12,112 nucleotides of DNA from a virus (taxonomy: Duplodnaviria > Heunggongvirae > Uroviricota > Caudoviricetes): IMG/VR virus record IMGVR_UViG_640753024_000005; one strand, 5' to 3'. Each line of letters starts with the position of its first letter. Position 1 is the stretch's first letter. Made by a program: the position numbers and the translations under genes. Positions 1 to 12,112 of this stretch are shown piece by piece. The notes beneath the pieces are model-generated. The model saw only the letters and a list, made by a program, of their open reading frames with translations. It was not told the origin of the DNA and made no database searches.

Positions 1-696
1 TCACTTAGGGTATGGCTGAACCCTGAATAGTTTGGTATTTAGCCGCTTCCTTGCTCGCTTGTTCAGGAATCTGATGTAGCGATACTGATTAAATTTGTGC
101 GCCACGGCACGCTCTTTATTAGCCCGTAAATACACGCCTCGTTGTCCACCCCGCTTAATCGCGTTCATCGTTATCTCGTGATACCACTCACCATCCAGCT
201 CGTAGAACGTGCTTTCATGGCTGCCAATAAAATCAAAATTCGACGCCTGATACACAACGCCTGCGCGTCCGCAGCGTTCGTCAGCAAATGACTGAACCCA
301 CTCCACTGACGGATACAGTAATCTGATAACTTTCAGCGCGTAGCTGATGGCCCGTGATTCAGAGTTGCGGGGCATGTCGTCGTGTAGCCACATGCGATTC
401 AACTCCATATAGCCCCGGTTATCCGTTTCAAGCACGACACGACGACCTGAGTTGGGGTTAAGGGCATATCCCCACTGGAGAACGCCAACCAGATCGCGTC
501 CGCTGAATACTCCCAGGTGGAGGTAAGAGTTATTCACAAAACGGCGGGAATAGTGCTTTGTCTGAATAATTGTGCGGGCCAGCCAGCAGGATATGGTTTC
601 AACGCGCAGTTCCTTTGAACCATAGCCAACAATCTGGCCTTCATACTCAATAACGCACGGTTTCGTCAGAATGCGTGATTTTTTCTCTTTTCCCAC
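1..696 (-). CDS. mom: Mom DNA-modification protein; proposed GTG start at 696-694 giving 231 aa (alternative upstream ATG at 726-724 gives the 241-aa ORF in the track)
   Basis: ORF-track protein recognised as Mu Mom from memory. It sits at the extreme right end next to com and gin, as in Mu. A GGAG (707-704) lies 7 nt upstream of the GTG. The 231-aa length matches my recollection of Mu Mom; start choice is uncertain. Confidence 0.85.
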
Positions 697-835
697 AATG
701 TTTCTCCGTGGGATGCTCGCAGGCATTCAGCATTATGATGTGACGTTTGCAACGCGGACACCTGATTTCAATGTGATCAAAGGAATCCGCCTTAAATAAC
801 AGTTTGTTGCAGTTTTTACAGCGAATTGATTTCAT
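647..835 (-). CDS. com: Com, zinc-finger translational activator of mom (62 aa)
   Basis: 62-aa ORF with a CxxC...CxxC arrangement (CKNC ... CPRC). Strong AGGAGG 4 nt upstream of the ATG. Its 3' end overlaps the mom 5' end by about 50-80 nt. Size and position match Mu com. Confidence 0.9.
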
Positions 836-946
836 CTCACCTCCTTTGCATCAATTCGCCACTATCTTAAAAAACATCGTGGGTTGAGTGTGGTTATTGG
901 GGCATAATCGATCTGTATTACCGATCGATTCAATTGATTCGATCGT
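836..946 (-). promoter_or_regulatory. mom operon promoter/regulatory region: three GATC (Dam) sites, T6 tract adjoining a TAAGAT -10-like hexamer
   Basis: GATC at 910-913, 923-926 and 941-944, spaced 13 and 18 bp, two within CGATCG palindromes. A6 run at 869-874 (T6 on the mom sense strand) abuts a TAAGAT hexamer (864-869 reverse complement). In Mu, Pmom is repressed by OxyR at unmethylated GATCs and activated by C protein. Exact -35 and C-site not resolvable by eye. Confidence 0.6.
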
Positions 947-1511
947 CGTTTTCTATATGCGTTCGTTTGGCGGGGTGTTTTTTATACAGCGTTGACAGGG
1001 CCACATCGTAGATCAATGCGACCTGCTTGCGGGGGATTCCTTGTGCTAATAAACGCCCGGCCTGCTCCCATTCCGCTTTGGTTAGTTTAGGTGGTCGCCC
1101 ACCGATACGGCCTTTATTTCTGGCAGCAGCAAGTCCAGCCATCGTTCTCTCGATGATTAGTTCTCGTTCCATCTCAGCCAGGGCACCCATAACGTGGAAG
1201 AAAAAACGCCCCATTGGAGATGACGTATCAATACTGTCAGTAAGACTGCGAAAATTAATCCCTCGCTCTCGTAATTCCCCTACGAGAGAAATCAAATGTT
1301 TCATGCTTCGCCCGAGGCGATCCAGTTTCCAGACAACCAGTGTGTCACCTTTTTGAAGACGCTTTAAAGCGCGTTTTAATCCAGGTCTGTCTGTCCTTGT
1401 TCCGCTTAATTTATCTTCAAATATTTGTTCACATCCTGCACAAACAAGAGCGTTTCGTTGCAGGTCTGTATTCTGGTCATTTGTTGATACCCTTACATAG
1501 CCAATCAGCAC
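930..1511 (-). CDS. gin: Gin serine DNA invertase (193 aa), GTG start with GGGAG Shine-Dalgarno
   Basis: Protein begins MLIGYVRVSTNDQ with the catalytic Ser of the resolvase/invertase family and has a C-terminal HTH region. It lies directly next to an invertible segment flanked by gix-like repeats. Start codon is GTG (1511-1509). Confidence 0.95.
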   Translation of the reverse strand: MLIGYVRVSTNDQNTDLQRNALVCAGCEQIFEDKLSGTRTDRPGLKRALKRLQKGDTLVVWKLDRLGRSMKHLISLVGELRERGINFRSLTDSIDTSSPMGRFFFHVMGALAEMERELIIERTMAGLAAARNKGRIGGRPPKLTKAEWEQAGRLLAQGIPRKQVALIYDVALSTLYKKHPAKRTHIENDDRIN

Positions 1512-1565
1512 TCTGGATCTCCCGTTTAAAAGCGCAAATCATGCCATGCAGGCCGGAAACAGCCA

Positions 1566-1599
1566 TTATCTAAAACCTCGGTTTACAGGAAACGGTAAA
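1566..1599. repeat. gix recombination site, right copy (34-bp inverted repeat; 26-bp core 1566-1591)
   Basis: ttatctaaaacctcggtttacaggaaacggtaaa equals the reverse complement of 4504-4537 at 33/34 positions. The core has the 12-2-12 architecture of Gin/Hin sites, with central dinucleotide at 1578-1579. Confidence 0.9.
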
Positions 1600-2530
1600 T
1601 CAGGCTTCTGGTGCGTTGCAGAAAAACCAGAATGGCGCAGATATTCCAAACAAAGATAAATTTACGCAAACAATAGGTGCTTGCCGCTCTTTTCATGGTG
1701 CTATTAGCACAGGTGCAGGAAACTGGACGACGGCACAATTGATTGAATGGCTGGATTCTCAAGGGGCATTCAATCACCCATACTGGATGTGCAAATGTTC
1801 ATGGTCATACGGCAATAATAAAATTATTACCGATACTGGCTGTGGAACTATTCATCTTGCAGGTTGCGTTATTGAGGTTATGGGTAATAAAGGAGCCATG
1901 ACCATCCGTGTAACCACCCCGAGCACTTCCAGCGGTGGCGGAATTACTAACGCTCAATTCACCTATATTAATCATGGTGATGCTTATGCTCCTGGCTGGC
2001 GACGAGACTACAACACGAAAAACCAGCAGTCTGCATTTGCTTTAGGGAAAACAGGAGGCACTGTCGGAAATGATAAAGCTGTTGGCTGGAACTGGAATAG
2101 CGGGGTCTATAACGCAAATATTGGTGGCGCAACGACATTAATCCTCCATTTCAATATGAGCGAGGGGAGTTGCCCTGCCGTACAGTTCCGTGTGAATTAT
2201 AAGAACGGCGGTATTTTTTATCGTTCAGCACGTGATGGTTATGGCTTTGAAGCTAACTGGTCAGAGTTTTACACCACAACACGCAAACCCTCTGCGGGAG
2301 ATGTTGGTGCATATACGCAGGCAGAATGTAACTCAAGGTTTATTACAGGTATTCGCCTTGGCGGTCTGTCATCTGTTCAGACATGGAATGGTCCTGGCTG
2401 GTCTGACAGGTCAGGTTATGTCGTTACAGGTTCAGTTAACGGAAACCGTGATGAATTAATTGATACAACTCAGGCAAGGCCAATTCAGTATTGCATTAAT
2501 GGAACGTGGTATAACGCGGGGAGTATTTAA
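1574..2530 (+). CDS. Sv', silent alternative variable part of tail fibre S (no start codon of its own in this orientation)
   Basis: Open frame begins right after the TAA at 1571-1573 inside gixR and runs to TAA at 2528-2530. C-terminus (NGNRDELIDTTQARPIQYCINGTWYNAGSI) is paralogous to the S C-terminus. The TTG start in the ORF track (1616) is not a real initiator. Confidence 0.7.
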   Translation, partial: NLGLQETVNQASGALQKNQNGADIPNKDKFTQTIGACRSFHGAISTGAGNWTTAQLIEWLDSQGAFNHPYWMCKCSWSYGNNKIITDTGCGTIHLAGCVIEVMGNKGAMTIRVTTPSTSSGGGITNAQFTYINHGDAYAPGWRRDYNTKNQQSAFALGKTGGTVGNDKAVGWNWNSGVYNANIGGATTLILHFNMSEGSCPAVQFRVNYKNGGIFYRSARDGYGFEANWSEFYTTTRKPSAGDVGAYTQAECNSRFITGIRLGGLSSVQTWNGPGWSDRSGYVVTGSVNGNRDELIDTTQARPIQYCINGTWYNAGSI

Positions 2531-2532
2531 TT

Positions 2533-2598
2533 ATGATGCACTTAAAAAATATTACTGCTGGCAACCCTAAAACAAAAGAGCAATACCAGCTAACGGAA
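2533..2598. repeat. Internal inverted repeat inside the G segment (U' 5' end), partner at 3557-3622
   Basis: First 66 nt of U' and U are 64/66 identical in inverted orientation. A further 23/24-nt identical block follows (about 2638-2661 versus about 3500-3522). Confidence 0.85.
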
Positions 2599-3066
2599 CG
2601 ATTTAACATCAAATGGCTTTATACAGAGGATGGGAAGAACTGGTATGAGGAACAAAAGAACTTTCAGCCTGATACGTTGAAAATGGTCTATGACCACAAC
2701 GACGTTATTATTTGTATTGAAAAGGATGTTTCAGCAATTAATCCAGAAGGCGCAAGCGTCGTTGAATTACCTGATATTACAGCAAATCGCCGGGCTGATA
2801 TTTCGGGTAAATGGATGTTCAAGGATGGCGTAGTGATAAAGCGAACTTACACCGAGGAAGAACAGAGGCAGCAGGCAGAGAATGAAAAGCAAAGCCTGTT
2901 GCAACTTGTCAGGGATAAAACCCAGTTATGGGACTCACAGCTACGGCTGGGCATCATTTCCGACGAGAATAAACAAAAATTAACAGAGTGGATGCTCTAT
3001 GCGCAGAAAGTCGAATCTACAGACACCTCCAGCCTGCCAGTAACGTTTCCAGAACAACCAGAATGA
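2533..3066 (+). CDS. U', silent alternative tail-fibre assembly protein (177 aa)
   Basis: Starts [22 protein letters not shown], identical to the N-terminus of U on the other strand. Conserved ANRRAD motif. GGGAG upstream of the ATG. Confidence 0.8.
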   Translation: MMHLKNITAGNPKTKEQYQLTERFNIKWLYTEDGKNWYEEQKNFQPDTLKMVYDHNDVIICIEKDVSAINPEGASVVELPDITANRRADISGKWMFKDGVVIKRTYTEEEQRQQAENEKQSLLQLVRDKTQLWDSQLRLGIISDENKQKLTEWMLYAQKVESTDTSSLPVTFPEQPE

Positions 3067-3094
3067 GACAAGGCCCGCTATCGGGCCTTAATTT

Positions 3095-3622
3095 TTATTC
3101 AGGCTTTTGTGGCCATTCAGGATTTGCCGTATCCACACGGCTGACCAGAACACTGTAGCGCTCCCATGCTTCCAGTCGGCTACGCTCCTCATCTGTTGCC
3201 ATGTTCAGCCTGACAGCGCGTTCCAGTGGCTGAATAACGCTTTCTGCTTCAGAAAGCAACGCGGCCTTTTGTGATTCGGCCTGTTGTTGCAGTTCCTGTT
3301 CTGTATATTCCCTCTTTACTACTTTACCATACAGAAACATCCATTTTCCGTTATTGTCTGCGCGACGATTTGCCGTAATATCAGGAACTTCAACTATGCT
3401 TAGCCCTTCAGGATTAATAGTTGAAACGTCTTTACTGACAGCAACGATGATGTTGTTCTCATCGTAAGCAATTTTTATGGTGTCTGGCTGAAAATTCTTT
3501 TGTTCCTCATACCAGTTTTTGCCATCTTCGCAAAAGAGCCATACCACGCCCGCTTTTTCAGTTAGCTGGTATTGTTCTTTTGTTTTAGGGTTGCCAGCAG
3601 TAATATTTTTTAAGTGCATCAT
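3095..3622 (-). CDS. U: U tail-fibre assembly protein (175 aa from the MMHLK start)
   Basis: Paralogue of U'. The ATG at 3622 lies 1 nt after the S stop (3624-3626). The 12 extra N-terminal residues in the track's 187-aa ORF overlap S and are not credited. Confidence 0.85.
3557..3622. repeat. Internal inverted repeat inside the G segment (U 5' end), partner at 2533-2598
   Basis: See partner entry. Confidence 0.85.
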
Positions 3623-3623
3623 C

Positions 3624-5033
3624 TTAAACACTCCCCACGTTGTACCATATTCCCCCAATCAATTTCTGAATTGGCCTTCTGGCAACAGTGTCGACAAGAT
3701 CATCCGCATTGCCGTTAATTGCGGCTGTTAAAACATAACCTGACGCATCGCCAAAGCCGTAGTCGCGCCATACGTTTTTATATTCAATGCTGCCAAGACG
3801 AATATCCCGAACGACATGATTATGCAGCCATGTGCTTAACCAGTTGTTTCCCCACACTGAACCATAAATATCGCCACTAGACGCAACTTGCGCACCACTT
3901 CCCAGCGCAAATCCCCCATCTGTTTTAAAAATGAAATCACCACCACCATCTGAACCGTTATTAATATGAACACCATCACCACCGTTATCTTTCCACAAAA
4001 ACATACGAATACTTCCGTCTTCGTTGGTGAATGTAATGTGGTGGCGGTAATTACTTTTTAATCTAAAAGCGCTGCAATTAGATTCAATATCTTTATAAAG
4101 ATGTAATCCTAACCCATCAATATGTCCGATGCGCGAACCATTTGAATAGAAGCTAATAATACCATCTCCATCTTGCCTAAATCCGGTGTCGTTATCTCCC
4201 AGAACAATGGAGTTTTCACCCAGTGCGTTATCAGTAGCACCAATAGCTAGACCTCCTTCAATTTTGGCCCCGTGGCTGACATATATAGCACCTGTTCTTA
4301 GATTTATAGCGAATGGCCTTAATGGGCCGATATCACCGTTTTCGCCTTGTCCTTCAGCCGTAGGGATGAAATGAAGGGACTCTTCTGAACGGCGGAAAAT
4401 AAGACCGAAGGCATCATTAAAAATTCGCAGCGCATTCATCGTTCCAATTTTCAGTTCTCCGGTCATTTTATCGCCGGAACGCTGAACGGCGTTACCAGCC
4501 TTGTTTACCGTTTCCTGTAAACCGAGGTTTTGGATAAACAGCGGCTTATTGGGAATATCTGCTCCGTTCCGGTCTTTTGCCAGACGGGCATTGGCATTAT
4601 CCATCGCAATTTTCACCGCTTTTGCGGTGGCTGCCAGCGTTTCACTGGGGCTGTCAGTGGCACTGGTTAGCTGAACGAGTCCTTTTTTGTTCAGGCTGGC
4701 ATCATAGATATCCAGATTTTCACGTGCTGTACGCTGTGCTGATGCCCCGGCAGTTTTAATTTCGCTGAGGTTATTTTTTATCAGCAGCGCGTTATTGCTC
4801 ATAATGGCTTTAATGGACAGTGCAAGCTGGTTTAATTTTGTTTTATCCGGTTGAATACCGGCTTCTTCCAGCGTGTTTAATAACTCCGCCTGCACAATAT
4901 TAAACCAGTCCATGCCGGGCCATGTGATAACATTATTCCCGTCACCTTCTGAAAACCAGCGAACGATAGCACTACGCTGGGCGGATACGGGCGGCATGAT
5001 GGTTACGCCGCTGTCGTTATCAATATAAAACAT
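3624..5033 (-). CDS. S: Tail fibre protein S (469 aa): constant part Sc (5033-4538), gix-encoded linker, variable part Sv (4503-3624)
   Basis: Long ORF crossing gixL in frame, with gly-rich fibre-like repeats in the variable part and a conserved C-terminal motif shared with Sv'. Its ATG overlaps the stop of the upstream gene (TAATG at 5035-5031). Confidence 0.9.
4504..4537. repeat. gix recombination site, left copy (34-bp inverted repeat; 26-bp core 4512-4537), embedded in the S reading frame
   Basis: Core ttcctgtaaaccgaggttttggataa with central GA at 4524-4525. In the S frame it encodes [12 protein letters not shown]. Confidence 0.9.
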
Positions 5034-5575
5034 TAGTTATCTCCGTCATGGTAAACAAATTTATAAATCTGATGCGCGGGTTTATATTTCTCCAGTAAAC
5101 ATTCCAGCGCACCCGATTCATAAACACGTAACGGCGTCAGAACATTATCCAGCACCGTTGCGTTGCGATAATTTTTAATACCGTAAATATTGACCTGCGT
5201 AACCCACTGGCCTTCTGTGGAATCCGTCAGCCTGACGGTAAAACCGTACTGCGCAGCCAGCCATTCATAAAAGCGCCGACTCAGATTGCCGGTCATACGC
5301 ATTTTATTCGCGGCAGCCCGCTGGCGTTCGGACAGGGTGCCGTTTTCGCTGGTACAGTCAGGCAACCCCAGAAATGATTCCCACTCCCCCAGATACCAGC
5401 GGGATGTGGACGGGAAACGCTCCCGCAGCATTTGCCGCGCATCATCCGCCGCAGCGGCAATCACGTCGCTGATGGCCTGCGCCAGCGCAGATAATTTGCT
5501 GTCGGGGCTTTTATTCCAGGCAAGCCCTGACGGCAGTAATTGCAGAAAGGCCGTCTGATAGGGTGTTACAGCCAT
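5033..5575 (-). CDS. R: Baseplate wedge protein, Mu gp48 equivalent (180 aa)
   Basis: Position immediately upstream of S and exact length match to Mu gp48. Overlaps the W stop by 10 nt. Assigned by synteny and size, not by a recognised motif. Confidence 0.75.
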   Translation of the reverse strand: MAVTPYQTAFLQLLPSGLAWNKSPDSKLSALAQAISDVIAAAADDARQMLRERFPSTSRWYLGEWESFLGLPDCTSENGTLSERQRAAANKMRMTGNLSRRFYEWLAAQYGFTVRLTDSTEGQWVTQVNIYGIKNYRNATVLDNVLTPLRVYESGALECLLEKYKPAHQIYKFVYHDGDN

Positions 5576-6648
5576 TCAATTGTCCCCGGTGTTAACAGTT
5601 CCGTATTCTCCGAACGCTGGATCTCTGTCGGGAAACGCACTTCAAAATCATCCAGACCGGTAACACCTGCCACCGCACGGATAATACGGGAGGGGGCAAG
5701 TGCGCCGCCCGGCGTCACCTCATTAAAAAACATGGTATTAATGGCGTGAGTAATAGCCTGTTTCAGTTCGGCTGTCTTCGGTGATATATAAATCCGTGGA
5801 TTTACCGGCTTTGCCTTTGCCGCAAATACCGTGACATTTACACCATCAGGCTGTCCGACAATCAGACCAGTGATCGGGTCAGTATGACCGGCGATATAAT
5901 CCGCCACGCGTTCCACGTCTGCCGGTTGTGGAAAAATATTGCTCCGGTTATCCATAACAAACGTCACCCCGACTGTGCCACCGCCTTTCCATGTCGGAAA
6001 ACACCAGGCACGGGTAACGCCGCTGACTTCACGCGCCCAGCGAACATAATCAAACTGATTACCGCCGAACGGAGGATACTGGACACGATATTCCAGCCGT
6101 GACAGCAGCTCCGCTGCACTCTCAATATCAGCCCCACCGGAAAACCCTTTTACAGTGATGGCATCGGAAACAACACAGGCAACCGGGGTGATCAACGTTA
6201 AAAGGGTATTCTCACCGGTATTTCCTGCCTCACCGGCAGCCAGTGCGGTAACGGTAATTTCCGTCGTTCCTGCACGGTCAATCACAATGGCATCAGCCAG
6301 GCTGTAAACCACACCATCAGCACGCTGCCAGCGTGTACCGGCAGGAATGGTGGTCGCTGCCGATGTGGTGACAGTCAGCGGGCCGCTGGCGGCTGTCGCC
6401 TGTTTGCGGCGCACGCCCCAGAACCGGCAGTGCTCCAGCAACTCATCTTCATCTGCTGTCGACGGGATAATCTGCCGTCCAACCCATGAAATATGCTCGT
6501 GACAACCGGCAGCAAGGCCCGCCTGAGCATAAGCAATGGCACTCAGCGTTTTTTCACGGGCCTGAGGCCAGCTACCCGGCAGGCGCTGTTCAATATTCTG
6601 TTCTGTACGGGCAATCAGCGATGATAATGTCGGTGGTGAATAAGCCAT
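5566..6648 (-). CDS. W: Baseplate protein, Mu gp47 equivalent (360 aa)
   Basis: Synteny and exact length match to Mu gp47. Directly abuts the preceding gene (6649/6648). Confidence 0.75.
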   Translation of the reverse strand: MAYSPPTLSSLIARTEQNIEQRLPGSWPQAREKTLSAIAYAQAGLAAGCHEHISWVGRQIIPSTADEDELLEHCRFWGVRRKQATAASGPLTVTTSAATTIPAGTRWQRADGVVYSLADAIVIDRAGTTEITVTALAAGEAGNTGENTLLTLITPVACVVSDAITVKGFSGGADIESAAELLSRLEYRVQYPPFGGNQFDYVRWAREVSGVTRAWCFPTWKGGGTVGVTFVMDNRSNIFPQPADVERVADYIAGHTDPITGLIVGQPDGVNVTVFAAKAKPVNPRIYISPKTAELKQAITHAINTMFFNEVTPGGALAPSRIIRAVAGVTGLDDFEVRFPTEIQRSENTELLTPGTIEWL

Positions 6649-7086
6649 TTAAACCCCGTTAAATGCTGCTTTAAACTCATAAGGAATAACGGAACCATCC
6701 GGTAATGTCAGTGCAATGTAGAGGTATAACCAGCCCTGATGTAACTGTTCCGCTCTGACGTTAATCGCACTTACCCGGCCCGCTGTTTTCAGCCATTCCA
6801 GCGCCTCTTCGGCATACCCTCTGGCGCGTTCCAGCGTATCCGGTGTGGCTTTTTCACGTGATAACAGCCACAACCGCGAACCGATGGGGCGGTCGCGGTA
6901 ACTGTCACCCCACCATCCACGGCGATCATCTGAACCATCCGGCAGCGTGTCAGAATCCAGCGCGCGCCGGTCTGTAAACAGGGAGATTGTCACATCGGTT
7001 GTCAGGCTGTCGTCGGTCAGCATGTCAATGCCATCCTGTGCAATATCGCCGCGTCCGTTCGTCCAGATAATGGCTAAATCGGTCAT
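6649..7086 (-). CDS. V: Baseplate protein, Mu gp46 equivalent (145 aa)
   Basis: Synteny and length. ATGA start/stop overlap with the upstream gene at 7086-7083. Confidence 0.75.
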   Translation of the reverse strand: MTDLAIIWTNGRGDIAQDGIDMLTDDSLTTDVTISLFTDRRALDSDTLPDGSDDRRGWWGDSYRDRPIGSRLWLLSREKATPDTLERARGYAEEALEWLKTAGRVSAINVRAEQLHQGWLYLYIALTLPDGSVIPYEFKAAFNGV

Positions 7087-7676
7087 TGCATTGGCCCCGT
7101 GGTTCCGCCGCTGTCGCCACGGTGGATATGCTTATCCGTCGATTTGCCATTGATGATGGCATCCGGGGCAGTAATATTGCTGTCGAACTGGCTTTTACCT
7201 TTAACGCCCAGACCTTTCTGGATCTCAACGTCGCCGGTAAACGTGGTTCTGGGTGTGTCAACGGTCATACTTTCATCAGCGTAAACCTCAACCGTTTTAC
7301 AGGTAATGATGCAGCGTCCGTCCTTTGTCAGCCGGATACGATGCCCCTCATGGTGGTAAATGCCTGCATCACCCGGTTCAAGATTTGTCGGGCGGTAGCG
7401 GCGGTCTTCCACCACAACGGCGATCCCCTGATCACGTTGTGCACCCACACAGGCAATCAGCGCCTCTGCGCCCGGCAGGGGAACGCTGAAATGTCCGTAA
7501 TTTTGCAGGCGCTCCACTTCATCGGATTCCTCATCATCCAGCAGACCGACCTGCAGGTTCTGAACCTTTCGCCCGTCGTTAATCACGTTAACAACAGCGC
7601 GCGCAAGCATCAGGCGCACACGACGCATCAGCGGCGTCAGCAGGCGGTTCAGGGCGGAATCATTTACTCTTTCCAC
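7083..7676 (-). CDS. Q: Baseplate central spike, Mu gp45 equivalent (197 aa)
   Basis: Synteny and length. His-rich C-terminal tip (KHIHRGDSGGTTGPMQ) fits a metal-binding spike apex. Overlaps the P stop by 13 nt. Confidence 0.75.
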   Translation of the reverse strand: MERVNDSALNRLLTPLMRRVRLMLARAVVNVINDGRKVQNLQVGLLDDEESDEVERLQNYGHFSVPLPGAEALIACVGAQRDQGIAVVVEDRRYRPTNLEPGDAGIYHHEGHRIRLTKDGRCIITCKTVEVYADESMTVDTPRTTFTGDVEIQKGLGVKGKSQFDSNITAPDAIINGKSTDKHIHRGDSGGTTGPMQ

Positions 7677-8803
7677 GGCGGCGTTTTCTCCGGGTGTCTG
7701 CGATAATAATCTTCAACCAGCGCATCAATACCGCCGTTACTGTCGCCGCCTTTCCTGTTTTTACGGTCGCTTTCAACCGGCACCAGAAAGCCTTCGCGTG
7801 GTGCAAGGCTGACGCGGGTTTTCAGCCCGTCCTGGTCATTCAGTATCAGGGTGACTTTGCTGGCCAGTAATTCCGTGGTTTTGATGGCATATTTCGAGGC
7901 ATCAATAGTGACCAGCAGGTTCGGCATCCAGAGTTGCCCGTCCTTGCGAGTCCATCCGTCAATTTCAGCCTCAAAGGTGATGGATTTTGCCAGTCTGCGG
8001 CGTTGCTCACGCAGGGCGCGGGCCTGTGCATCCTTCGCCGTAATTTTGCTGTCGGCAATGATGATCATCGGTCTGTAACGGGTCACATCACTGTCAGTGG
8101 CGGTCCCTTTCCGGGAGACGATACTTTTCGCATCAATATCATCACCCTCAGCACCGTTTGCGCGGGCATACCCCTTGACGGTGTATTCGCTGAACCGGTC
8201 GCGGAAGTCTTCCTCAAAATCCAGTGTCAGCAGATTTTCTCCGAGAACCAGCTCATCAGTGGCTGTGCTGGCAGCCCGGCTGAATACCAGCTCTCCGGCG
8301 GCATTGCTGGTCATCAGTACACCGCGTGCGCGGGAGGCACGCACCAGCGCCTCATAAACGGTTTCTGAATGGTCCAGCGTGAAGCCGGGAAAAGCTGCCG
8401 AACTTTCCTTATCGGAAAGCTCCCAGCGAACGGTAACGCCATAAGGGGTGCACAGGTCACGCGCAATCTGCTCCAGTGTGCGGTTTTTCCACTGTCCGCC
8501 ACTGTAAACGGCAGCACAGTCAATCAGGTCAGCCGTTTTGTCACGTCCGGCGACAGTGATTTTCATACTGTCAGCGGTCATCTGGCGTCGCCGTGAATCG
8601 ATATAACCGGTGCAGACAATCTGCCCCCCGATTTCGAGCGTGAACGCCTTCCCCGGTGCCAGCCCGGATAAATCCGTGCCCGGTGGCACGTTCACCCCCA
8701 GCTCAAAATATCCGGCTACGGATTCAATGGAGCGGGTGACAGAGACTGACGTCCAGCCGGTAAAAAGCCTGCCATCCGTTCGCAGCGTGACGGTATTACT
8801 CAT
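7664..8803 (-). CDS. P: Baseplate hub protein, Mu gp44 equivalent (379 aa)
   Basis: Synteny and exact length match to Mu gp44. ATG at 8803-8801 preceded by GAGGTG and overlapping the stop of the B'-remnant fusion ORF. Confidence 0.75.
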   Translation of the reverse strand: MSNTVTLRTDGRLFTGWTSVSVTRSIESVAGYFELGVNVPPGTDLSGLAPGKAFTLEIGGQIVCTGYIDSRRRQMTADSMKITVAGRDKTADLIDCAAVYSGGQWKNRTLEQIARDLCTPYGVTVRWELSDKESSAAFPGFTLDHSETVYEALVRASRARGVLMTSNAAGELVFSRAASTATDELVLGENLLTLDFEEDFRDRFSEYTVKGYARANGAEGDDIDAKSIVSRKGTATDSDVTRYRPMIIIADSKITAKDAQARALREQRRRLAKSITFEAEIDGWTRKDGQLWMPNLLVTIDASKYAIKTTELLASKVTLILNDQDGLKTRVSLAPREGFLVPVESDRKNRKGGDSNGGIDALVEDYYRRHPEKTPPWKE

Positions 8804-9146
8804 TAATCACCTCAATACTGACACCACCGGGAACAAACAACGGGTTGCCACATACAACAGCAATACTTTCAGTCAGGCTGGCAAAACGCATACTTGTCCA
8901 GATTTGTTTTACCGTCTGCGTTTCCACAAAGCGGGGCGGTTCAGGTAGTTCTGCAACTGCATGATATTTTTCCAGCCAGCGTTGCAGCATTTGTGAAACA
9001 CGCTCGTTATCCCCGTTGTACTTATCATTGATAAAACTACTGATAGTTCCGGTAGAAAGTCCGCTCTCAAGAGCAATTTGTTTAAAGGTGGTTTCTTCAT
9101 TTTCTACAAGCGTGCGCAGTCCTGCGCGAATATCGGAAATATTCAT
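8796..9146 (-). pseudogene. B: Truncated B (target-DNA activator, AAA+ ATPase): residues 1-102 retained, fused in frame to a 14-codon remnant (LFVPGGVSIEVINE) that I infer to be the 3' end of gene N
   Basis: ORF starts MNISDIRAGLRTLVENEETTFKQIALESGL, recognised as the Mu B N-terminal domain from memory. Homology stops at ...VVCGNP (8849-8841), exactly where Walker A (GNPGVGKT) should continue. The ORF ends 14 codons later, overlapping the P start. Confidence 0.85.
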
Positions 9147-9184: not shown

Positions 9185-11173
9185 TTAAATGGCTTTTTTA
9201 CGTCTGTTCTGTTCCAGAATATCCAGCGAATGATTCAGATATTCATCACGCTCAGTTTCGTATTCATCATCACGCTCCTGATTCTTCACCCGTTCCGTAT
9301 TACCGGAAGGCCGGAAAATGCCGACAATTCGTGATTCTGGTGCTTCAGGTTCGGCTATCTGCGGCAGCAGCTCTGCCACTTCCAGTGCATCCATTTGTTT
9401 TTGTGCCTTAATCGCTGCTTTCGTCGCAGATTTCAGTTGTTTCTGGCGGCGGCGATATTCACGGCCTGCCGCAGCATCATTAAACGCAACAGGTGCCAGA
9501 CATTCCGCTTCACAGATAAACCGACCGTCCAGGGTGTAGCAATAAACCGTGCTGTGTAACTGCTGTGGATCAAATCTGACCACAACTTTTTTCACTCCGG
9601 CATTCATTAACGCCATGTTGTAATAAACGTTTTTCGCACCTTTAAGGGAGCCGCCAACTTTAAGCGCGAACTCGCCTTTACGTGAAACGTTCACCGCCTC
9701 GGCAGGCAGTAACAGCATCCGTTTTTGCTCTTCGGTAGGCTTACGCACAATCGTTCTGGCGTATTCACGCTCAAAAACGTCATCAAACGAAAGTTTGCCT
9801 CCGCACATTTCTGTTTCACGGCCTGTTCTGGCATTGAACATCGCCACACCTTCGGCAAGGGTTTTCAGAAACAGCTCTGCATCAACAGCGCGGTCGCCAT
9901 AGTTATCAGGTTTTGCCTGCGGATTTGGCCCCGTATATGCGCCAGCCAGTGCCGGATGCTTATCAACGTATTCCTCAAGCCCACCAACACCGAAAGCACG
10001 TTCAACAGGTTTTGCCTGGCCCCAGCCTTTACCGGCAACAACGCTTGTCCAGTGCATTTTCGCGCCCATCAGTAAAAACAGTCCCTTTGGATCGTCCTCT
10101 TTTACCTTAAAGCGGTAACGATTGGGCGCGCCCCCCGTCAGCCATTTATTCGCTGCACCACGGGTGTTATCAATGGTGATGTGAAAATCCTCCGGGATGC
10201 CGTAGCGTGTCACCACATCCATAAACGAGAGGCGAATTGAGTCGATGTTCTCGCTTACATCGCAGCGCCAGCCCAGAATTTTTCGGGTTTTCACATCCTG
10301 CCAGAACCATGTTTTCGGGCGGATCACATCACCGTTAAACCAGCGTACAAAGACGTTATGCAGATAACCGTCGCCGTTGATCCACTGCATGGCGTCCAGG
10401 TGTTCCACAGTTCGCTGCTGTGCCGGTATCAGATGCATCAGTGCATGTTCACCTTCACGACAGGCAACAACCATTGCCTCGTCCAGTTGCTGAATCCGGC
10501 GAAAGGCCGTGGCACGGGAGGGAATACTCCAGCCATGCTCGCGGGCTGCCAGTTCCAGACGCTCATAACATTTGCGGAAGGCGGGCTTTTCCGGTCGCAG
10601 ATAATCTGCAATCAGAAACTGCCAGGCATCCTCGTCAAATTCACTTTTGTGAACGTTGCGACGGGATGCACCACGTCCATCAACAAGCGCAGCCGCCCAG
10701 TCAGGCTTCGCAAACTTCTGTACCTGGTAATACTTGTCCCGCAAAGTGGATGCGCTGACCTGGTAATGCCCAGCAACGGTCGCAAAAGCCGTTTTTGTTG
10801 AAATCCCCTGGTTCAGCATTTCGTCTGCAGCCTGAACCGCAGGCAACCATTTTTCAGCAAGTCTGCGCTGGGAATCGCTGGCGTTATCCCATTTGCTCCA
10901 CAGTGCCTCACGATCATAATCATGGGCTTCCAGCGTGGGGCGGGCGATTTCAAAATACCCCTGACTTGTTTCAATTCTCCCTTGTTGCAACAGAATTTCA
11001 GCACGTAATGCGACAGGGAATGATTTGATATTGAATTCAAATGATACACCTTTAGTCCCTGCAACCTGCCTGAACTCCCAGCCTTCTCTTTGTGCCTTAC
11101 GTGTAATGTTAGTGGCTTGCTTTGGTAAACCTGCCAAACCGAGCAACTCTTTTGCTGTATACCATTCTTTCAT
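9185..11173 (-). CDS. A: DDE transposase A (662 aa), apparently intact
   Basis: Recognised from memory as near-identical to MuA from about residue 65 onward. Catalytic DDE contexts present ([40 protein letters not shown]). N-terminal 60-65 residues differ from MuA as recalled and resemble the c repressor N-terminus. Confidence 0.95.
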
Positions 11174-11180
11174 AGCGCAC

Positions 11181-11402
11181 CTAGTATCGAGACGGCCAAA
11201 TATCTTGCGGTGTCATTCCCAGTGCATCTGCAATGATTTTCTCCGCTTTCGGATATCTCTTATCCAAAGCATTTTTCAATGTTGAAGACGAAAGATGATT
11301 AGATCTTCCCAATTCAGCTAGTGACATATTGCGTTTTCGTAGCTCTGCAACGATGTCAGCTCTGTGCCAATCTTGGCGGTTAGTTCTTTTATTCATATGC
11401 AT
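11181..11402 (-). CDS. ner: Ner-family early regulator (73 aa; possible start at the third Met, 11396)
   Basis: Small basic HTH protein with the DWHRADI...LSSSTL...IWPSRY signature shared by phage Ner and E. coli Nlp. Sits between the operator region and A. Looks D108-type rather than Mu-type from memory. Confidence 0.85.
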
Positions 11403-11587: not shown

Positions 11588-12112
11588 ATGATGTCTTTTG
11601 AAATCAAAGAATGGTTTAATGCGAAAGAGCTGGAAGGGATGCCTGGTGTACCAAAGTTGGCGACTAACATTACCAGGAAAGCTGTGGCGGAAGATTGGGT
11701 AAAACGTCAGCGTCACGGTGGGAAAGGTGTCGCTTATGAGTATCACATCAACAGTCTGCCAGAAGAAACACGCAGGGCCATTAAAGGTGCCTCACTTTCT
11801 GATAAACCAGTGCATACATCAATCGCCCATACAGTTGATGAGAGGCTAATTTATGCAATGAGCTTTTTAACACCAGATGAGCAGGCCGCAGCTGTGGAGA
11901 TCATTCGTGTAGCAGGGATTAAAGGACTTATGCCTACAATTGTCAGTAAAGATAAGGCATTAGAGGCATTAGGGATTACTGTGGAGCAACAGAAAACCCT
12001 GCAAACTCTTCAAGCATTACCACCGGAAAAAGTAAGAGAGATTTTGTCTCAGTATGAAGGCAAAGAACATAATTTCCCTGTAAGAGAAAACGATGTAAAG
12101 AAAGCTGTATAA
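11588..12112 (+). CDS. c: c repressor (174 aa), immunity repressor of the transposable phage
   Basis: Divergent from ner-A across the operator region. Its N-terminal region is about 50% identical to the A N-terminal domain (shared [16 protein letters not shown]), the known repressor/transposase paralogy in Mu-like phages. Confidence 0.8.
   Translation: MMSFEIKEWFNAKELEGMPGVPKLATNITRKAVAEDWVKRQRHGGKGVAYEYHINSLPEETRRAIKGASLSDKPVHTSIAHTVDERLIYAMSFLTPDEQAAAVEIIRVAGIKGLMPTIVSKDKALEALGITVEQQKTLQTLQALPPEKVREILSQYEGKEHNFPVRENDVKKAV

Follow-up and report, generated by a model that had tools for sequence, protein, structure and literature searches.

A 12,566-bp Mu/D108-like prophage in Escherichia coli E24377A whose B-N gene fusion is very probably the scar of one internal deletion

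How did the start of the Mu transposition gene B come to lie directly upstream of the baseplate gene P in a prophage of Escherichia coli, and what kind of element does this leave? The stretch of DNA analysed here (the window; 12,112 nt) is, as its reverse complement, identical to positions 1062302-1074413 of E. coli O139:H28 strain E24377A (NC_009801.1). It spans the stop codon of c to the stop codon of mom of a Mu/D108-like prophage that measures 12,566 bp with its ends and is inserted in ssuA. On the minus strand of the window B passes into the gene N within one open reading frame, whose components are as follows.

8796-9146, minus strand: B'-'N fusion ORF of 116 codons (MuB residues 1-102, the last 14 residues of N, and the stop codon of N)
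8845-9146, minus strand: B-derived DNA (B nt 1-302), 100% identical to D108 B DNA
8845-8848, minus strand: GCAA microhomology and crossover point, occurring in both parental genes
8796-8848, minus strand: remnant derived from N, namely its final 53 nt with the TAA, carrying the P ribosome-binding site

The fusion ORF translation ends in ...VVCGNPLFVPGGVSIEVINE before the stop codon (longer tail form, ...IAVVCGNPLFVPGGVSIEVINE). By tblastn, D108 B residues 1-102 match the window at 100% identity, while residues 103-312 have no match there in any frame (best E=0.48, which is noise). Beyond the crossover the remnant reads in N's own frame, ...S-N-P-L-F-V-P-G-G-V-S-I-E-V-I-N-E-stop. The TAA of N (8798-8796) overlaps the P ATG (8803-8801) through the 8-nt ATGAGTAA, the same overlap as in D108 (N 26257-27744, P start 27737), and the P ribosome-binding site GAGGT lies inside the remnant at 8813-8809, the position of Mu 27678-27682. 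An earlier note on this DNA had read the locus as B fused in frame to a 14-codon remnant that overlaps the P start, and tblastn, the alignments and the ATGAGTAA overlap all agree with it. That note had allowed that B homology might continue past residue 102 in another frame, or that the remnant might not resemble the 3' end of the gene upstream of P; the former gave no match, and the remnant aligns to the end of N.

At the DNA level B ends a little earlier than its protein suggests. B homology by megablast occupies window positions 9200-8845, and N/P homology runs from 8848 onward. The parental sequences at the GCAA, taken from D108 and the prophage of strain FDAARGOS_1058, are ..GGCAATCCT.. 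in B and ..CAGCAACCCG.. in N; in direct alignments with the same two prophages B reads ...TGT GGC AAT CCT GGT... and N reads ...TAT CAG CAA CCC GTT GTT.... Exactly GCAA is common to both parents, and the window holds a single copy of it with no filler bases. The DNA breakpoint is therefore in codons 100/101 (GGC AA|C) and not after codon 102. Protein identity to B seems to reach residue 102 because B and N coincidentally both encode Asn-Pro at the crossover (Asn101-Pro102, AAT CCT in B and AAC CCG in N). The placement of the end of B homology at 8841, codon 102, in the earlier note thus holds for the protein, but for DNA the identity to B ends at 8845, in codons 100-101. Its expected parents, B nt 1-306 on the left and the last ~45 nt of N on the right, were the right ones, with the lengths now corrected to 1-302 and 53, sharing 4 nt.

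A short direct repeat at both breakpoints, of which one copy is left without filler, is the pattern of a microhomology-mediated deletion. The clean illegitimate or microhomology deletion proposed earlier is upheld by the join within GCAA and the lack of inserted bases. The junction holds nothing but B and N sequence, and is distant from the Mu ends and from gix sites. A microhomology of 4 nt is short, and roughly 2% of joins made at random would reach it: an exact overlap of at least 4 nt is expected by theory at 1.6% of random junctions and was obtained at 1.8% of 200,000 simulated ones, in which the D108 B gene was joined to a segment of the Mu late region (Mu 19500-28000). The B gene of some Mu-like prophages, for example that of E. 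coli W, reads GGCAACCC, with which the overlap would be 7 nt; the nearest relatives of the element's left arm carry the 4-nt GCAA version. A second patch of similarity was also observed, TCCTGGTG directly following GCAA in D108 B and a similar TCCCGGTG lying 12 nt downstream of GCAA in N; it may be due to chance, or may have aided misalignment.

We considered the in-frame join as a sign of selection and rejected this, since all three frames end within 9 nt of the P ATG; either of the other two would stop at 8807 or 8812. Because those frames also terminate beside the P start, the reading frame of the join has no meaning for selection. The 116-aa product of the fusion is in all likelihood a by-product without activity. 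Full-length MuB comprises an N-terminal four-helix domain (residues 1-63, PDB 2mqk), an AAA+ module (Pfam AAA_22 begins at residue 92) and a C-terminal domain (residues 223-312, PDB 1f6v). Retained in the fusion are the whole N-terminal domain, the linker and the opening part of the AAA+ core with its first strand. Of the Walker A motif (P-loop) GNPGVGKT only GNP remains before other sequence takes over; the Walker A lysine and all residues beyond it are gone. With the P-loop so replaced, the fusion should be unable to bind or hydrolyse ATP or to form target-capture filaments, and an element whose B is cut at this loop would be without ATPase, target capture and efficient replicative transposition.

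The deleted segment corresponds to Mu 3660-27646 (23,987 bp in Mu coordinates), and to 23,512 bp in the FDAARGOS_1058 prophage, the closest full-length relative. Adding the deleted length to 12,566 bp gives 36-36.6 kb, a normal Mu length. The early and regulatory genes lost are B codons 103-312, kil, gam, other semi-essential early genes, mor, and C, which encodes the activator of the late promoters. Lost late genes are those for lysis, head, connector, sheath, tube, chaperone and tape-measure, together with all of N but 53 nt. The late promoter PP, which belongs to the P operon and is annotated at Mu 27287-27353 inside N and at least 290 bp upstream of the right breakpoint, is also deleted. 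We searched the whole E24377A genome for the deleted N body, which is absent from it, so the deleted DNA was lost and not rearranged elsewhere. Two claims of the earlier note are thereby confirmed: that everything between B and P is missing from the window, which extends to the genome, and that the element is a reduced one (put there at about 13 kb; measured here with its ends, 12,566 bp) rather than a phage of ~37 kb. Loss of the killing, regulatory, lysis, head, sheath, tube and tape-measure genes would mean no particles, no lysis and no tailocin. A tailocin locus was considered separately and rejected, as the sheath, tube and tape-measure genes and the N body are gone and only baseplate and fibre genes remain.

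Both ends of the element are intact. The left one matches D108 at 204/206 positions; the right one, with its repeated CGAAA-type sites, agrees with Mu at 129/131. The ends as they stand in the host record are of the form TG...CA, with TGTATTGATTCAC as first bases and CGCCGCTTCA as last bases, and GCCGA flanks the element on both sides, interrupting ssuA. A 5-bp target duplication is typical of Mu transposition. The element thus has the ends with MuA-binding repeats homologous to Mu/D108 and the 5-bp duplication at a non-specific host site that characterize Mu-type transposable prophages (Muvirus), and also their arrangement of c divergent from ner-A-B with a DDE transposase, with c, ner and A intact. 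It does not have the complete B AAA+ ATPase or the head, tail, lysis and regulatory set. Since B stops at residue 102 and no genes lie between B' and P, the element is a defective derivative and not a functional phage. The host flanks lie outside the window (L001 9656-10498 and 23058-23186). ssuA is the second gene of the aliphatic-sulfonate operon ssuEADCB; split by the prophage, it probably leaves E24377A unable to take up sulfonates for their sulfur, and a polar effect of the insertion on ssuDCB is possible.

Outside the junction, the window retains the following features.

11588-12112, plus strand: c repressor of D108 immunity type, 174 aa, 98.9% identical to D108 c
11181-11402, minus strand: ner, 73 aa, 100% identical to D108 Ner
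9185-11173, minus strand: A (MuA transposase), 662 aa, 100% identical to D108 A, with Pfam DDE_2 and Mu-transpos_C
7664-8803, minus strand: P (gp44, baseplate hub), intact, 379 aa, its ATG overlapping the fusion ORF stop
3095-7676, minus strand: remainder of the baseplate/tail-fibre operon, all reading frames open
7083-7676, minus strand: gp45
6649-7086, minus strand: gp46
5566-6648, minus strand: gp47
5033-5575, minus strand: gp48
3624-5033, minus strand: S
3095-3622, minus strand: U
3070-3089: strong hairpin terminator between U and U', where terminators are also annotated in D108
1-3066: right-arm remainder
2533-3066, plus strand: U'
1616-2530, plus strand: S'
930-1511, minus strand: gin
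647-835, minus strand: com
1-726, minus strand: mom
1566-1606 and 4497-4537: G-segment inverted repeats of 41 nt, the invertible G segment being retained

The protein accessions of c, ner and A are shared with the full-length FDAARGOS_1058 prophage, and immunity of the D108 type should still be conferred by the element. Over their N-terminal 60 residues the c repressor and the A transposase are 55% identical, and both score for Pfam HTH_Tnp_Mu_1; this is the operator/enhancer-binding domain that Mu-type repressors and transposases are known to share. The S product has 469 aa in the element and ~500 aa in the annotation of D108. The element is a mosaic, combining a D108-type immunity region and left end with a Mu-type right end that has no D108 gene 56, and the ten best phage records cover 49-66% of the whole window.

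The closest full-length elements are D108 (GQ357916) and the FDAARGOS_1058 prophage (NZ_CP065970). Their left arms are 99.9-100% identical to that of the element and the c, ner and A proteins are identical (apart from the 98.9% of D108 c); the P-gp48 arms are 98.9-99.5% identical, with the same gene order and the same N/P overlap. The element differs from both in lacking 23.5-24 kb from B nt 302 to the last 53 nt of N, and from D108 also in lacking gene 56 at the right end.

How the retained tail genes might be transcribed follows from what was lost. The coding strand has no convincing terminator from B' to the end of U, and the hairpin at 3070-3089 is the first convincing terminator downstream of the element's early promoter. 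With PP and C deleted and no terminator from B' to U, expression of P-U would be possible only by read-through from the early promoter. Their only transcript would then be that of an early operon lengthened at its 3' end and still under repressor control, in the order Pe, ner, A, B'-'N, P...U, terminator. The emphasis of the earlier note on an in-frame join with preserved coupling to P can accordingly be kept in part: the join and the overlap are there, but the join carries no signal of selection, and with PP and C deleted the coupling is translational only.

The junction was found in 1 of 5,426 complete E. coli genomes, and searches for it in IMG/VR and in JGI metagenome contigs gave 0 matches in each. 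Its presence in only one finished genome, sequenced by the Sanger method in 2007, could suggest an assembly artefact in which two parts of a full-length prophage were collapsed into one, a reading to which we give next to no credence. The fusion is also encoded, with an identical junction, in the independent Logan assembly of run SRR9425412, where a single contig of 10.9 kb carries ssuE/ssuA, c, ner, A, the junction, and P to gp48. The comparison covered 1,601 nt of this contig across the junction and gave 1601/1601 nt identical to E24377A, the sample being E24377A re-sequenced or a close relative. An identical junction in an independent assembly in practice excludes misassembly; furthermore, a 4-nt repeat cannot cause assembly collapse, and the N body that a collapse would have had to draw upon is nowhere in the E24377A genome. 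Among the same 5,426 genomes the P-gp48 arm is present in 45, and 44 of these 45 also have the N body, the exception being E24377A. Mu/D108-type prophages are rare in E. coli by this count, 44-45 genomes carrying N and the baseplate arm. The c-ner-A-B left arm has some match in 89 genomes, yet most of the arm is covered in only 44, so other partial or heteroimmune relatives exist. We also looked in the 5,426 genomes for a full-length prophage at the same ssuA site and found none, the ssuA::Mu junction being unique; E24377A itself has no second Mu-type element, the prophage occupying a single place in the record.

Taken with the breakpoints, the gene losses and the intact retained genes, this makes it very probable that the site is the scar of a single, presumably RecA-independent, microhomology-mediated (illegitimate) deletion of ~24 kb inside an integrated full-length Mu/D108-type prophage. 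Most likely such a prophage would have transposed into ssuA of the E24377A lineage first and suffered the deletion afterwards, when the GCAA in B codons 100-101 would have been fused to the GCAA that lies 53 nt before N ends, leaving a single copy. The product would be a natural A+ B- mini-Mu-like defective prophage of 12,566 bp, private to one lineage. The order of these events is a matter of parsimony and not of demonstration, because no full-length ancestor occupies ssuA in the 5,426 genomes, and that same lack would suit a deletion that arose in another cell or at another site, the shortened mini-Mu then transposing into ssuA, either by its own A at low B-independent efficiency or by helper-Mu packaging and infection. 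The intact ends, the intact A and the perfect 5-bp duplication fit this equally well as they fit deletion in situ, and laboratory mini-Mus do transpose and are packageable with a helper (established Mu genetics; PMC10052514). We nevertheless consider it unlikely: it needs more steps than deletion in situ, E24377A offers no second Mu-type element as helper or donor, and a travelling mini-Mu sits poorly with a junction seen in one complete genome and in neither IMG/VR nor the JGI metagenome contigs. Far less probable still is that the B(1-102)-N(14) protein was selected and is functional, for example in interfering with incoming Mu-type phages or in regulating the element. The MuB N-terminal domain that it keeps whole and in frame (residues 1-63) does have a helix-turn-helix fold, of which the role is described as unresolved (PMC11292022). 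Against function, however, one join in three would be in frame by chance and every frame ends beside the P start, the protein is private to one lineage and lacks everything from the Walker A lysine onward, and we found no family of such truncated proteins.

Deletion within the integrated prophage would place the element beside a well-known kind of construct. Laboratory mini-Mu prophages formed by internal deletion were reportedly described by Faelen, Toussaint, Waggoner and Pato from the late 1970s to 1981. Like these (PMC10052514), the element has lost most of its internal DNA but keeps both Mu ends, the repressor and A; part of B is missing from some laboratory isolates too, and their size is similar, of the order of 10 kb. 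The element differs in being natural, from a wild enterotoxigenic E. coli isolate, in having a long right arm (P through mom, 8.8 kb) and an in-frame B-N fusion, and in pairing D108-type immunity and left end with a Mu-type right end. As in a mini-Mu, both ends and an intact A are present in cis; the functional B required for efficient replicative transposition is not, residues 103-312 being absent. When part of B is missing, laboratory mini-Mus show poor replication even with B supplied in trans (PMC10052514). From established Mu genetics, transposition of the element should be inefficient and B-independent only. Grounded (cryptic) prophages, as reportedly reviewed in PMC6379469, likewise have their lethal and morphogenetic functions deleted and immunity and some structural genes kept; unlike the prophages of that account, the E24377A remnant keeps an apparently intact transposase and both ends, and would be mobile in principle.

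There is a slim chance that the remnant is a still-mobile natural A+ B- mini-Mu, which a superinfecting heteroimmune Mu-type helper could mobilise and package with ~26 kb of adjacent host DNA, and whose P-U genes would be expressed from the early promoter on derepression. Such a remnant would bring with it D108 immunity, the packaging site of the left end and both ends, and its transfer would be mini-Mu-mediated transduction.

In the literature on E24377A together with Mu-like prophages or ssuA we found no description of the element, Mu-like prophages being mentioned there for other strains or in references only. Its kind, a prophage disarmed by internal deletion and a natural counterpart of mini-Mu, is well known, and it is a case of ordinary prophage decay. 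It opens no long-standing question, and its value is mostly for annotation, while also giving a natural case, resolved to the base pair, of a transposable prophage disarmed in what was probably one step with transposase and ends kept. It accounts for the Mu transposase and the repressor that stand as orphans inside ssuA of E24377A, together with a baseplate/fibre block. It also identifies as MuB 1-102 the B part that PGAP calls a pseudogene 'missing C-terminus' and names 'death domain-containing protein'. This name is misleading for a truncated MuB; it traces to a sub-threshold Pfam Death match (21.9 bits, cut-off 22.6) on the MuB helix-turn-helix domain.
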